From Anaerolineaceae bacterium (lineage in GTDB: Bacteria > Chloroflexota > Anaerolineae > Anaerolineales > Anaerolineaceae): DNA of 64,000 nt. The notes beneath the pieces are model-generated. The model had not been told where the DNA came from, did no database searches, and saw only the letters and a program-made list of their open reading frames with translations. The position numbers were made by a program, and so were the translations under genes. The stretch covers positions 180,509 to 244,508 of the forward strand of contig JAENYZ010000006.1 in NCBI GenBank assembly GCA_016841525.1, written 5' to 3'. Below, in pieces: positions 14,055-27,129 of this stretch (position 1 is its first letter; every line of letters begins with the position of its first letter).

Positions 14055-16694
14055 TTACCTTGAAGTTGTGAATTTTACTAATTTACCTTTATCATTGAAG
14101 GTCATTCGTGCATAATGATGATGTTCTGCATTCAGATTGAGATCAAAGGATTTCTGCAGCGTGACAACGTACCTTTGTGCGTCACTTGATTTGCCCACTC
14201 TTTTCGAATTGAATTCCTGATAGGATTTATTCATCTTCATTTGTGCGTTTTCCAAACCTGGCAGATAACTTTCAACAATTTTCTTCACCTGTTTGCTAAC
14301 GTTTTTAGGCATATCGTTTTCATTATTTTCAGGCACTAAATCGGAGTCGCTGATTGTTTTAATCTCAGGATGCGATTTTTCTCTTAATAAAGGTTTTGGT
14401 AAGGCACTGATTCCATCATGAACTGCAAGAGGATCGCCAAGGAGGATGAAAGATAAGATCGTTTTCTGGTCTTCACCGTCCAAAAAGCCCTGTGTCTTTG
14501 TCATCTCTTCGACAAGGTTTAATTTGGCTTGCATCAAAGCATAGCCAGCTGCCTGTCCATCAAGAACTTGTTTCCAAAAAGCATTTGCTAAATAATCTGC
14601 CGCAATCAACGGTGGCATGACCGACCCATAAGCGATGCAGGTCGAGCCAACAAAGGATTTGGTCCCGGTGTCAAGGAACTTCAAAGACATCGCATCTTCA
14701 TGTCGTTTTTCAATAACATTTGCGCCGTAACATGCCTCAGTAAATACAAGCTTTGGTGATCGGATTTTTTCACTAAACATGTTTGGGCTCAAGGCAATTG
14801 GATAATCTGGACCGGAGGATGGCGATGAAAAGTCTTTTTGTCCGTACCAGTTAGCGCCATCTTTGATGCCATGGAGATTGAAATAACCGATTTTGTGTCC
14901 AAGGCTGTTGTTGAGGGCAAGCGAACCAGAATGCACGGGGGGTGAAAGCTGTAGTTCTTTCCCCTGCCCAGCATTCTTGTAAACCTCAGCAGATGTTTCC
15001 TTCCATATTTCTGCAGAGTAACCAAGACTCTGGTTCGAGTTAACTGTCCTGCTCCAATTGGAGAAGAGATCCAGGATCCAAGTGAAAATTGAGGCGAATT
15101 TCTGCACACTTGATTTGGGTTTCTTTGATTTTTGTTTGTATTGATAGATCAAGCCTCTTATCTGCGAGAGTAACAAACCTGCGTCCGAGCCAGTTTCACC
15201 GGGTAGACGCCCAACAGGCCATTGAGGGATGAAGTAATTTTCATCAATTGTTCCATATGGGTTATCTGAAGGCACATCTAAATCATTATCGCTCGTGGGA
15301 TTTGGCAGGTGATGGAAGGGTACGATTTCAGGACTGCCAACGATCAATAGCGCGCCGATCATTTCCCCTTGCTTTTCAAGATGTTCATCGAGGTCCGCAA
15401 GGGCTAATTTTACCTGCCATGGATCATTGGCAATAAAAGGCTTGAGCCCTAATCTTGCCATTGAGGCTGAATCATCTGGATAGAAAATTTTTGCATCCCA
15501 ATCCGGCAGTCCCTGGATGTAACCCATGAGCTCTTGGAGCAGTTTATCAATGACATCCGCTGTGTTTGGTCCGTAAATTTTCTCCAGTTGTTTTCTTGAG
15601 GATAAGATGACATATACCGGGAAGCGTGTGTCGGTTCGTTCTAAGTCAAGCTTCTTTAATCGCTTGGCGATCTTTGTAAAAGCTGTTTGGACTTTTTCAA
15701 TATCTTTGCTATTTGCGTCTTTTTTCGCTTTTTGTTTTGAACTGTTATCAGTGTGAGACGCAGTTATATTTTTTACCGACCTGGTTGATGCTTGTGCCAC
15801 CCTGATTTCCTGTGTTTCACTGATTGATGGTGTGTGAGATACACGTCTGAAAAAAGGACTTTGTGAGAACGTCGGAAAATTGAAAGCACCAGGATTGAGT
15901 TGATTCCATCCCAGATACGCACTGACAGAGGCAGGTATTGGCAGGTCGAAATGAGCTTGTAAATATTCAGGCCACATGTCCTTAAATTGGTGATTATTTC
16001 CCAACATTCTTGTTATCACCTGTCCTGCATTATCTTGAGATTCCACCCAATGTAAGCGCTCTACAGCACCGGCTTCTAACCCATGTTCAATTTCAGAAAT
16101 TGCTTTTATCACATTGATTTGCAAGCACTTTGGCCAGGCATCATAATATATCTCACTCAGGTTGCTGACCATTTCCTGGTTTTCCAGGTTATTGGCAATT
16201 TGTAAATGCAAAATTGCTGGAATTGGCGTTTGAGGTGCTTTGAGGAGCGATTGATGCACATATTGGATTGCATTTGAGAAATCACCTTGCTCGAATTTCG
16301 ATCGAGCTTCCCACAACGGAGAAAACCAGGCTTCTTGGGCCTGATTGGAAGACTTGTTCTTTACAAGATACTGATAAATTGATCGGTAGCGACTTTGCAT
16401 ATCTTTTTTGGCGGTCAATTCACTCATATCTTTTACGGGTTCGATGAACAGGGGGTCTAGCTCTATCAGATTTTCATACAGCAATCTTCCCTGATCGATT
16501 TTGCCAGTTTTTATGAATGTTTTTGCCTGGTAATATTTCACATATAAATCACCGGGGAAATTGGCGAGCCATAACATTGTTGCTTGTTTTGCAAACTGAT
16601 ATTCTTCACAATGATCTGCGGCATTGAGGATGGTCAGAAAACGATAGCGATCAATTGCTCGTAGATGGTCCAGTTGATTGTTGGAGTCTGTCAT
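14055..16694 (-). CDS. Cytoplasmic TPR-containing protein with a peptidase C25 (gingipain-like, clan CD) domain
   Basis: No signal peptide. The N-terminal ~250 aa are TPR-like. The C25-type stretch is LLIVGSPEIVPFHHLP..VPSDNPYGTIDENYFIPQWPVGRLPG, with candidate dyad YFNLH(608)G and VFTEAC(655)YGAN (codons 14871-14873 and 14730-14732). Confidence 0.65.
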   Translation of the reverse strand: MTDSNNQLDHLRAIDRYRFLTILNAADHCEEYQFAKQATMLWLANFPGDLYVKYYQAKTFIKTGKIDQGRLLYENLIELDPLFIEPVKDMSELTAKKDMQSRYRSIYQYLVKNKSSNQAQEAWFSPLWEARSKFEQGDFSNAIQYVHQSLLKAPQTPIPAILHLQIANNLENQEMVSNLSEIYYDAWPKCLQINVIKAISEIEHGLEAGAVERLHWVESQDNAGQVITRMLGNNHQFKDMWPEYLQAHFDLPIPASVSAYLGWNQLNPGAFNFPTFSQSPFFRRVSHTPSISETQEIRVAQASTRSVKNITASHTDNSSKQKAKKDANSKDIEKVQTAFTKIAKRLKKLDLERTDTRFPVYVILSSRKQLEKIYGPNTADVIDKLLQELMGYIQGLPDWDAKIFYPDDSASMARLGLKPFIANDPWQVKLALADLDEHLEKQGEMIGALLIVGSPEIVPFHHLPNPTSDNDLDVPSDNPYGTIDENYFIPQWPVGRLPGETGSDAGLLLSQIRGLIYQYKQKSKKPKSSVQKFASIFTWILDLFSNWSRTVNSNQSLGYSAEIWKETSAEVYKNAGQGKELQLSPPVHSGSLALNNSLGHKIGYFNLHGIKDGANWYGQKDFSSPSSGPDYPIALSPNMFSEKIRSPKLVFTEACYGANVIEKRHEDAMSLKFLDTGTKSFVGSTCIAYGSVMPPLIAADYLANAFWKQVLDGQAAGYALMQAKLNLVEEMTKTQGFLDGEDQKTILSFILLGDPLAVHDGISALPKPLLREKSHPEIKTISDSDLVPENNENDMPKNVSKQVKKIVESYLPGLENAQMKMNKSYQEFNSKRVGKSSDAQRYVVTLQKSFDLNLNAEHHHYARMTFNDKGKLVKFTTSR

Positions 16695-16696
16695 TG

Positions 16697-25784: not shown

Positions 25785-27129
25785 CCTGAATGCCTTGCTT
25801 TTCCAGGCTTTTGCGTATTTCCGTATCGTTCATCGCATGATTTTCGTTCTCAATAATGTTGCGCATAATTGCTCTGACAGATAAACTGCGATCAAAAAAA
25901 GTGGACATTGGAATGATCTTCCGGTTTGGGAGCTGAACCGTCTTGTTCGCTACAGCTCTTGAAATTGTGGATTCATGAACATCTAAATTTTCTGCTACCT
26001 CAGCCCGGGTTAATGGCTCAAGATGGACATCACCATGAATTATAAATGATTTTTGCACCTCAACGATTTTCTCCATGAGTTGGCGCATGGTGTTGTTACG
26101 CTGCTGAATGCATTTGATGAGCAGTGACGCTTTATCAAGATCCTTTTTCCATTCTTCTTGTTTTTCTTCGGATTGTTCTTTTAAGGCTTTTTTGAATAAT
26201 GGATTTAATCGCAGGGTGCCCCGAGATGGGGTGATGATCTCAATGATCAGGGGGTTCCCGGGTTTATTGTCGAGATAATAAATCAAAATATCGGGTTGAT
26301 GAAATACGTCTGGTGTGTTGTCATTGGGCTGTCTGAAGGTTCCCCAATTTGCACGAGCAGGGAAGGGATTAAGATTTTCGCTGATGTAGTGGGAGACGAG
26401 TTTAATCTTTTGAACGCTGGTCCCAAGCTTTTTTGCCAGTTCGCTGTACTGCCGCTTTTGTAATAATTCGAATTCTTCTGAAATTGCTCGACGAACAAAT
26501 TCTGGAATATTTGAAGATTCAGATAAGAACTCTACCTGTGCTAACAATGCTTCCTTGATATTTCTTGCTGAAACTCCCAGGGGATCACAGCGCTTGATTT
26601 TCTTAAGGACTGCTTCAACTTTGCCGGGTGTTGTGTGATGAAAACGACAAATTTCGCGAACTTCTATGGCTAAGAATCCATCATCATCGAGATTCGTCAG
26701 AATCATCGCAGCAATTTCACGCTCGTCCTTTTCTAATTCTGGTGCGACCTGGCGCAGGACATATGTGGGAAGGTTGAGTGGAATAGAAGAGTATGGATCT
26801 TCTGGCATATCGTCGCTGTAGGACTTACCAGAACCGCTGTAGTTGTAAAAATCATCTCTGGGAGAAACAAATACAATTGTTTCATCAGAGTCGAGAGATT
26901 TAGGCTGGCTGCAAATAGGGCAGGGACCTTGCGGCGGCAATTTTCTTCCGCACATCGGACATCTTCGTTCGTTAACCAGTTCAAGAGCCGGGTTTTTGGA
27001 TAATTCGACGTCAATGGTTTGCAATAATTCGGTGGACGTCATATAGAGCAAGGTCATCGTTTGCGCTATGTGCGCTGATGTCATCGGGCTCTGTACTTGG
27101 TTTTGTCCTTGATACTGGTTAAGTCTCAT
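25696..27129 (-). CDS. rpoN: RNA polymerase sigma-54 factor with a Cys4 insertion in region II
   Basis: RpoN box ARRTVAKYR. Region I MRLNQYQGQNQ..LLYMTSTELLQTI. Start moved to ATG 27129 (AGGAG 8 nt upstream) from 27177. Confidence 0.9.
   Translation of the reverse strand: MRLNQYQGQNQVQSPMTSAHIAQTMTLLYMTSTELLQTIDVELSKNPALELVNERRCPMCGRKLPPQGPCPICSQPKSLDSDETIVFVSPRDDFYNYSGSGKSYSDDMPEDPYSSIPLNLPTYVLRQVAPELEKDEREIAAMILTNLDDDGFLAIEVREICRFHHTTPGKVEAVLKKIKRCDPLGVSARNIKEALLAQVEFLSESSNIPEFVRRAISEEFELLQKRQYSELAKKLGTSVQKIKLVSHYISENLNPFPARANWGTFRQPNDNTPDVFHQPDILIYYLDNKPGNPLIIEIITPSRGTLRLNPLFKKALKEQSEEKQEEWKKDLDKASLLIKCIQQRNNTMRQLMEKIVEVQKSFIIHGDVHLEPLTRAEVAENLDVHESTISRAVANKTVQLPNRKIIPMSTFFDRSLSVRAIMRNIIENENHAMNDTEIRKSLEKQGIQVARRTVAKYRAMEGILPAHLRRIEKFATA

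Follow-up and report, generated by a model that had tools for sequence, protein, structure and literature searches.

Does a gene for the alternative sigma factor sigma-54 that stands beside its own signalling genes and a sigma-54-dependent operon form a switch with them, or is that operon only one of many targets of a general regulon? The question is raised by a block of six genes in a 64-kb stretch of DNA from an Anaerolineaceae bacterium, which we call the window, meaning the whole stretch that was analysed; all block coordinates are in window numbering, and the block lies on the minus strand. It comprises rpoN (sigma-54), a soluble sensor histidine kinase, a sigma-54 activator and a cargo operon for a small membrane protein, a very large tetratricopeptide repeat (TPR) protein and a TPR-C25 protein. 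We think it rather probable that the block is a self-activating sigma-54 switch of Anaerolineae, vertically inherited and with its main conserved target adjacent to it. The regulatory part of this reading is well supported by comparative evidence, which points to an autoregulated system that is gated by a two-component pair and acts on an insulated neighbouring target.

Layout and conservation of the block

The block contains the following features, listed in the direction of transcription (lengths in amino acids, aa, and nucleotides, nt):

27149-27189, minus strand: composite rpoN promoter, with a sigma-54 element CTGGCATGCTTCTTGCA (27173-27189) overlapping TTGCAA-17 nt-TATAAT (27177-27149)
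25696-27129, minus strand: rpoN (sigma-54), 477 aa, with Pfam Sigma54_AID, CBD and DBD and the RpoN box ARRTVAKYR
23733-25688, minus strand: soluble sensor histidine kinase, 651 aa, with clear PAS, HisKA and HATPase_c domains and weak N-terminal PAS and GAF
22552-23733, minus strand: sigma-54 activator, 393 aa, with a receiver (Asp53) and an AAA+ domain with a NAFTGA loop, and no DNA-binding domain
22511-22527, minus strand: cargo sigma-54 promoter TTGGCACAGATATTGCT, kept in 67/67 loci
22479-22506, minus strand: leader hairpin CACCTCC...GGAGGTG, from folding of relatives' leaders
22142-22474, minus strand: 110-aa protein with two transmembrane segments and no family match
16697-22111, minus strand: 1804-aa TPR protein, cytoplasmic, with a 430-aa N-terminal region without family match followed by TPR to the end
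14055-16694, minus strand: 879-aa TPR-C25 protein, with TPR at ~12-260, the C25 catalytic region at ~355-760 and a C-terminal beta domain
13969-13995, minus strand: 3' hairpin, 11-bp and G+C-rich, probably closing the unit; its U tract is weak

An earlier annotation of the window (the original prediction) had placed the six genes, the cargo promoter, the overlaps and the closing hairpin at these positions, and we find them there, all on the minus strand. The genes are tightly packed: the kinase stop and the activator start share one base (23733), and a gap of 2 nt separates the TPR gene from the protease gene.

We searched for the block from both of its ends. A protease-anchored set comprised 82 loci (L001 and L002 included), in which the other block genes were sought by tblastn, and a reverse search in metagenomes yielded an rpoN-anchored set of 80 loci; the DNA that could be inspected reached about 10 kb to either side of a match. 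All six genes, in the order rpoN, kinase, activator, 110-aa membrane protein, ~1800-aa TPR protein and TPR-C25 protein and on the same strand, were found in 64 of the 82 protease-anchored loci, that is, in every one that reaches far enough upstream, and this order is kept down to 38% protease identity. Starting from rpoN, the protease was reached in 43 of 80 loci, and all loci that are long enough show the same order. Neither set contains an alternative arrangement, the incomplete loci being cut by contig ends or by the 10-kb limit. Because both searches recover the block, the linkage holds in both directions. The proposal that sigma factor, signalling pair, promoter and cargo operon form one unit is thus borne out, and gene order in relatives, named beforehand as a point on which it might fail, holds throughout.

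Among 185,579 representative genomes, one per species, at least 499 encode a relative of the protease, and the best 80 species matches are all uncultured Chloroflexota, labelled Anaerolineae/Anaerolineaceae, Chloroflexota or 'Chloroflexia'. The source organism of the window is itself Brevefilum-like: a protein of a Brevefilum sp. genome, named 'C25 family cysteine peptidase', has 94% identity to the protease. Among more than 1400 protease relatives, those with a named organism come from Anaerolineae or Chloroflexota metagenome-assembled genomes. Identity to the window across the loci is 54-98% for the activator, 48-98% for rpoN and 44-99% for the membrane protein (the highest), and with 20-91% it is lowest for the TPR protein. 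Upstream, 49 of 53 loci have a divergent dapL-hflX block in common; on the downstream side, shared neighbours are confined to the Brevefilum clade (16 of 62 loci). Since the G+C content of the block equals that of its flanks and the dapL-hflX context is conserved, the locus is vertically inherited core genome without the character of a mobile island, and the earlier label of a 'self-contained island' has to be dropped.

At its 3' end the block is bounded by an unrelated transporter operon, which fixes the boundary because it begins with its own sigma-70-like promoter (13904-13877) and with a Moco riboswitch (RF01055, 74.5 bits; 13741-13859, minus strand) ahead of ECF/ABC transporter genes. In relatives, Oxidored_molyb genes follow this Moco-riboswitch transporter operon. 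The hairpin at 13969-13995 is probably the end of the unit: folding shows the hairpin claimed there, with an 11-bp stem, although its U tract is weak and the terminator scan flagged neither this hairpin nor the leader hairpin, which was likewise checked by folding. Two further riboswitches lie elsewhere in the window, one for cobalamin (6805-6943, minus strand, 61.7 bits) and one for glycine (48905-48998, minus strand, 61.3 bits).

Promoters, leader hairpin and regulatory proteins

The cargo promoter (TGGCACAGATATTGCT, 22511-22526) is the sole perfect match to TGGCAC-N5-TTGCW in the 64 kb. It begins 24-25 nt past the activator stop, where the original prediction had seen a near-perfect promoter, and with its -12 C at 22512 transcription is predicted to start at about 22498-22500. 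In all 67 loci examined it stands between the activator and the membrane-protein gene, with the strict pattern in 58 of them and a slightly relaxed GG-N10-GC in 9. A second sigma-54 promoter (CTGGCATGCTTCTTGCA, 27173-27189), absent from the original prediction, lies about 45 nt ahead of the rpoN ATG. Read as TGGCATGCTTCTTGCA (27173-27188) it differs from the consensus by one C-to-T change, the element occupies the same position in every locus with 160 nt or more of sequence before rpoN (76 of 76), and its G, G, A and CTTGC are invariant across 70 unique sequences. Three matches to the relaxed motif TGGCAY-N5-TTGCW occur in the window against 0.33 expected by chance, and two of them are the promoters of the block.

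Two other sites were rejected. The one at 9930-9945 (plus strand, TGGCATTGGTTTTGCA) matches the relaxed motif perfectly but lies inside an open reading frame (ORF), in antisense, and is probably due to chance; a sigma-54-like site before the protease gene (16733-16748) recurs, among 106 unique relatives, in no more than the 3 closest and was also attributed to chance. A recurrent TGGTA(C/T)-N5-CTTGCA about 390 nt upstream of rpoN, pointing in the rpoN direction, is seen in L085, L094, L096, L107 and L136; the L085 match falls inside the divergent trmFO coding region and likely reflects coding constraint.

The sigma-54 promoter of rpoN is overlapped by a sigma-70-like promoter in 70 of 70 unique upstream regions, in one of two arrangements. 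In the first (49 sequences) TTGCAx, the -12 element, also serves as a -35 box, and a TATAAT-like box follows 16-18 nt further on; the TTGCAA-17 nt-TATAAT of the window, which is of this kind, is the top sigma-70 match of the whole region. In the second (22 sequences) the -24 element is covered by GGTATA(A/C)T, which looks like an extended -10 box. Because the sigma-54 elements are kept even where they have no sigma-70 role, the sigma-54 promoter appears to be under selection in its own right. From these sequences we infer that the rpoN promoter is composite, with sigma-70 providing basal expression and sigma-54 amplifying it. Sigma-70 would be required for the basal level, as a cell without any sigma-54 could not begin to make it from a sigma-54 promoter. 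Sigma-54 polymerase that is bound and unactivated could also dampen the overlapping sigma-70 promoter, as may be compared with negatively autoregulated rpoN genes.

The cargo leader folds over its own ribosome-binding site. In the window, an anti-Shine-Dalgarno arm (22500-22504) pairs with the Shine-Dalgarno sequence GGAGG (22481-22485); a short U run comes after the hairpin, followed by the ATG of the membrane-protein gene at 22474. The Shine-Dalgarno sequence is paired in the RNAfold structures of 91 of 97 unique leaders; in 85 of these 91, the partner of the first G in GGAG is found exactly 12 nt past the -12 C. This places the masking arm at -4 to +1 of the promoter and the start of the helix between -11 and -4. 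Outside the Shine-Dalgarno core, three pairs (-5 to -7) form in fractions of 0.87, 0.77 and 0.65 of the sequences, compared with maxima of 0.74, 0.63 and 0.60 in 500 shuffles, and several pair types occur among them; because the sequences are related, this covariation is supportive, short of proof. In many clades the hairpin is followed by a U run.

Sigma-54 promoters have a conserved GC at -13/-12, and their transcripts are expected to start about 12 nt after that C. With the masking arm at -4 to +1, a sigma-54 transcript should therefore have its first base at the end of the arm or just past it and be free of the mask. Judged by this geometry, only cargo mRNA started by sigma-54 is probably translatable, and by analogy with known masked mRNAs we infer that the leader hairpin insulates the cargo from basal transcription of its regulators. 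Gating of the target, called tight in the original prediction, would thus be even tighter than proposed, as rpoN has a sigma-54 promoter of its own and the cargo ribosome-binding site is covered by a hairpin.

Of the three regulators, RpoN lies above the Pfam cutoffs for CBD (105 bits) and DBD (118 bits), just below the one for AID (22.9 versus 23.8 bits) and just below that of NCBIfam TIGR02395 (268 versus 277 bits). Region II contains a CxxC-x9-CxxC insertion CPMCGRKLPPQGPCPIC (residues 57-73; nt 26911-26961, minus strand) that resembles a zinc ribbon; its cysteine motif is kept by every unique N-terminus (72 of 72). Cysteines are missing from the aligned part of 7qxi, the best match among the solved sigma-54 structures shown, and we know of no sigma-54 with a metal-binding insertion. 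The kinase starts with GTG at 25688 and has 651 aa, as NCBI calls the identical gene; the longest ORF overlaps rpoN. Its earlier description as a soluble PAS/GAF kinase holds for PAS, HisKA, HATPase_c and the lack of any predicted transmembrane segment, while its N-terminal half matches PAS (E 2e-4) and GAF (E 0.009) weakly.

The activator matches PF00158 (Sigma54_activat) with 232 bits, with Walker A GESGTGK, and Response_reg with 90 bits, the receiver residues Asp9/10, Asp53, Thr81 and Lys103 being readable in the sequence; its closest solved relative is Aquifex NtrC1. The contact loop (23070-23090, minus strand; residues ~215-221) follows the family motif [GN][AS]FTGA, with the FTGA core kept. 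The protein ends at residue 393, three residues past the AAA lid and with no helix-turn-helix domain, and because all 120 full-length orthologues (120/120) are only 388-402 aa long, none of them has a DNA-binding domain. A relationship to the PEP-CTERM trio PrsK/PrsR/PrsT was considered and rejected, the scores for PrsR (TIGR02915, 339 versus 503) and PrsT (TIGR02917, 249 versus 312) both being below cutoff; domain scans of the nearest neighbour genes and of relatives' neighbourhoods found no exosortase.

The cargo proteins

With its two hydrophobic segments, the 110-aa protein is the sole block protein with transmembrane segments among those scanned; kinase, activator, TPR protein and protease have neither a transmembrane segment nor an N-terminal signal peptide. 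Searches with the 110-aa protein and with the first 433 residues of the TPR protein gave no match to a known family. From about residue 430 to its end the 1804-aa protein consists of TPR, and its best NCBIfam matches are PrsT, PilW and similar scaffolds, all below cutoff.

The C25 assignment of the 879-aa protein, which the original prediction had described as TPR-C25-like and 2 nt from the TPR gene, is supported by Pfam matches of its orthologues and by a structure model. An orthologue with 58% identity (P0065) matches PF01364 with 42.7 bits against a gathering cutoff of 23, over profile positions 45-371 of 374, and another one (P0101) with 35.1 bits; altogether, 4 of 27 protease family members match Pfam C25, at best with E 2.9e-14. 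Sequence searches of the PDB, with the single protease and with the family profile, returned TPR proteins only. A first AlphaFold model, of the whole 879-aa protein with 27 sequences, had a predicted local distance difference test score (pLDDT) of 59, and of less than 50 in the catalytic region. The run was repeated with residues 335-879 and 81 more diverse sequences, down to 42% identity, and this model of the catalytic region reached a pLDDT of 83 and a predicted template modelling score (pTM) of 0.86. In a Foldseek search against the PDB its top four matches are the gingipains RgpB and Kgp (probability 1.00, E 7.5e-12 to 1.5e-10, template modelling score 0.53-0.54), followed by SAVED-CHAT, separase, MALT1 and Craspase TPR-CHAT, with E 7e-6 to 1e-3 for the CHAT-type matches (SAVED-CHAT and Craspase TPR-CHAT).

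His608 (nt 14871-14873) and Cys655 (nt 14730-14732), in the motifs YFNLH608G and LVFTEAC655YG, are invariant in the 81 sequences, to 42% identity, as suits the dyad that had been proposed for them. The two residues carry the clan-CD signature because each of them comes after a predicted strand (E268-272 and E315-318 in model numbering). According to this model, the 879-aa protein has a gingipain-like C25 fold with a putative catalytic dyad; it is predicted to be cytoplasmic. The resemblance to TPR-CHAT proteases that had been pointed out is real as far as the clan-CD fold and the CHAT and separase matches go, but gingipains match best and the defence analogy attached to it finds no support.

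The protease family is large: clustering at 50% identity gives at least 417 groups with E up to 1e-30, and the architecture is the same in the best 150. In the last ~40 residues (14058-14180, minus strand), within the C-terminal beta domain, we observed a conserved HHH(Y/F)ARMTF...GK.VK..TSR, of which His858, His860, Arg863 and Thr865 are invariant in the 27-sequence protease alignment.

The proposed switch, its rivals and known systems

In the self-activating switch that we favour, the sigma-70-like promoter would provide basal sigma-54, soluble PAS/GAF kinase and receiver-AAA+ activator. RNA that reads through into the cargo would carry the hairpin over the ribosome-binding site and so keep the cargo off, and in many species the hairpin may in addition act like a terminator. 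As is usual for these protein families, a cytoplasmic signal would lead the kinase to phosphorylate Asp53 of the activator, which, because it has no DNA-binding domain, would act from solution on promoter-bound sigma-54 polymerase, as FlgR and CtcC do. Of the two sigma-54 sequences, the one before rpoN would then give positive feedback and the other would fire the cargo, whose transcripts would begin just 3' of the masking arm and leave the ribosome-binding site free. The cargo itself could be a membrane-tethered intracellular protease complex for regulated proteolysis, in which a presumed activity, assembly and set of substrates would go with the modelled fold and the invariant dyad; the protease would be translationally coupled to the TPR scaffold gene, and the two-helix membrane protein may serve as tether.

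Several observations weigh against this reading. The window protease itself lacks a Pfam C25 match, even at E 10, and a complex of the three cargo proteins is suggested only by gene adjacency. The activator loop is NAFTGA and not GAFTGA in the Brevefilum clade (37 of 120 orthologues); elsewhere it is GAFTGA or GSFTGA. Five unique leaders (L057, L059, L063, L121 and L135) have no hairpin and yet keep the sigma-54 promoter. The U run is absent in some clades, so that a terminator role is not general. As a separate observation on L057, its TPR match comprises only the last 1.5 kb of a shorter gene.

It is quite possible that the block is instead a general sigma-54 system, with the membrane protein-TPR-C25 operon as one of many scattered targets, as in Chlamydia or Helicobacter. 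rpoN and cargo never separate in either search direction, which argues against this, as does the count of only two convincing sites in the 64-kb window, both of them the block's own; on the other hand, an activator that lacks a DNA-binding domain is not tied to nearby promoters. No second activator or rpoN was found in 2.67 Mb of DNA around relatives, whose flanks are largely one syntenic region, and no intergenic sigma-54 site adjoining a gene turned up in 1.1 Mb of these largely syntenic flanks. Outside the block, 160 loci held 21 strict sigma-54 motifs in their flanks, and of ten that were inspected all but one lie inside ORFs; motifs that recur at the same position were taken as protein-coding constraint (the L033/L054 site and the L022 site are inside ORFs). 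Such absence of further activators and sites is weak evidence because the flanks are the same syntenic region in many genomes, with only about 10 kb covered per side, and in Chlamydia a single activator of this kind controls the regulon (PMC7482065).

We regard two further readings as rather doubtful. In the first, the whole sigma-54 apparatus of Anaerolineae would have this one operon as its single purpose, as a bistable switch with three locks (activator dependence, rpoN self-amplification and translation only from the sigma-54 start) on a separase-like intracellular protease complex for a cell-fate decision in multicellular filaments, for instance fragmentation, dormancy or sacrificial death. 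In the second, the cargo would be a machine for assembly of the cell envelope or of filaments, made of a TPR scaffold (PilF-, PrsT- or BcsC-like) and a C25 processing or transpeptidase enzyme. The C25-like PorU of type IX secretion offers a model for the latter, with the 110-aa protein for work at the membrane; the gene for this membrane protein opens the operon, and no other cargo component is as well conserved; the best NCBIfam matches of the TPR protein are PrsT- and PilW-type scaffolds, below cutoff, and cell-exterior functions are over-represented in sigma-54 regulons (PMC3162934). These TPR matches are generic and well under the family cutoffs, however, neither the TPR nor the C25 protein has a signal peptide or transmembrane segment, and genes for glycosyltransferases, pilins or secretion are absent from the block and from its conserved neighbours.

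An anti-phage or abortive-infection effector like TPR-CHAT (Craspase) or SAVED-CHAT, induced by infection to kill or arrest the cell by proteolysis, is very improbable, and this analogy of the original prediction is disfavoured: it has the TPR plus clan-CD protease architecture and the CHAT structural matches (E 7e-6 to 1e-3) in its favour, but gingipains match far better, PADLOC has no match for protease, membrane protein and kinase and only generic ones for TPR protein and activator, the distribution is class-wide and not patchy, the G+C content is that of the flanks, and vertical inheritance at the same chromosomal place by dapL-hflX extends across the class. Domain scans of the block, its nearest neighbours and relatives' neighbourhoods revealed no CRISPR genes, and those of the block and its neighbours no nuclease or cyclic-nucleotide sensor; the lack of CRISPR and nuclease genes had been noted before.

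The self-activating switch can be compared with several known systems. In FlgS-FlgR-sigma-54 of Helicobacter pylori and Campylobacter, a soluble cytoplasmic kinase phosphorylates a receiver-AAA+ activator that has no DNA-binding domain and turns on sigma-54 polymerase with no need of an enhancer (cited in PMC3162934). Against NCBIfam FlgR our activator scores 303 bits, below the cutoff of 750. In Helicobacter and Campylobacter, rpoN, kinase, activator and flagellar targets are scattered, whereas here they form one block with a non-flagellar cargo and an rpoN that has its own sigma-54 promoter. Chlamydia has a single pair, CtcB-CtcC, again with an activator that lacks a DNA-binding domain (PMC3162934), and with sigma-54 it is described as a developmental switch (PMC7482065). 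Chlamydia belongs to another phylum; we claim likeness and not orthology, and its sigma-54 has no protease or TPR cargo linked to it, both of which are present in the block. The Chlamydia sigma-54 regulon is multi-gene, with many dispersed targets.

A sigma-54 promoter in front of rpoN, which implies autoregulation, is predicted for several bacterial classes, with documented cases in Geobacter and Dokdonia, in a survey without Chloroflexota (PMC12316311). In the block, the sigma-54 promoter always overlaps a sigma-70-like one and, unlike other sigma-54-driven rpoN genes, rpoN would share a transcript with the genes of its own kinase and activator. Sigma-54 is also described as driving nifR4 of Rhodobacter capsulatus and rpoN2 of Rhizobium etli. 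For the masked leader, fold-back inhibition of IS10/IS50 transposase mRNA, reportedly described by Davis, Simons and Kleckner in 1985, is the nearest precedent: transcripts that come in from outside contain a stretch complementary to the ribosome-binding site, and those from the element's own promoter start downstream of it and are translatable. There the mask defends the transposon against external promoters, whereas here, with a predicted start, it would shield the cargo from basal transcription of its own regulators.

The gingipains RgpB and Kgp, the best structural matches, also have a His-Cys dyad after strands, at 10-12% identity to the block protease. They are secreted virulence proteases with signal peptide, prodomain and type IX C-terminal domain, whereas the block protease lacks all three, has N-terminal TPR and a predicted cytoplasmic location. 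TPR-CHAT (Csx29, Craspase) and separase, which are significant structural matches, likewise combine helical repeats with a clan-CD protease. Their protease is inactive until a partner or ligand binds, while the control that is visible here acts on transcription and translation, and the block has no CHAT Pfam match, no type III-E CRISPR partner and no securin-like gene.

Anaerolineae are slow-growing filaments that are abundant in anaerobic digesters, sediments and sludge, and to our knowledge their regulation is almost unstudied. Our literature searches found no description of this block system and no paper on sigma-54 in Anaerolineae. Among Chloroflexi, sigma-54 has been reported for some members only (PMC3162934); Francke et al. 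2011 had a single Chloroflexi genome that contains it, that of Herpetosiphon, with one or two activators listed. The block offers a compact test system, with sensor, activator, sigma factor, two promoters and output within 13 kb, which could be moved to a heterologous host. The composite sigma-70/sigma-54 promoter of rpoN would give homeostasis without a signal and amplification with one, and a mask of the ribosome-binding site that is embedded in the promoter would make the correct start site alone the source of translatable mRNA. Our data furthermore define a large family of predicted cytoplasmic gingipain-like proteases, in a peptidase family otherwise known for secreted virulence factors, and tallies of C25 as extracellular peptidases in metagenomes (for example PMC8359207) may misclassify such genes of Chloroflexota.

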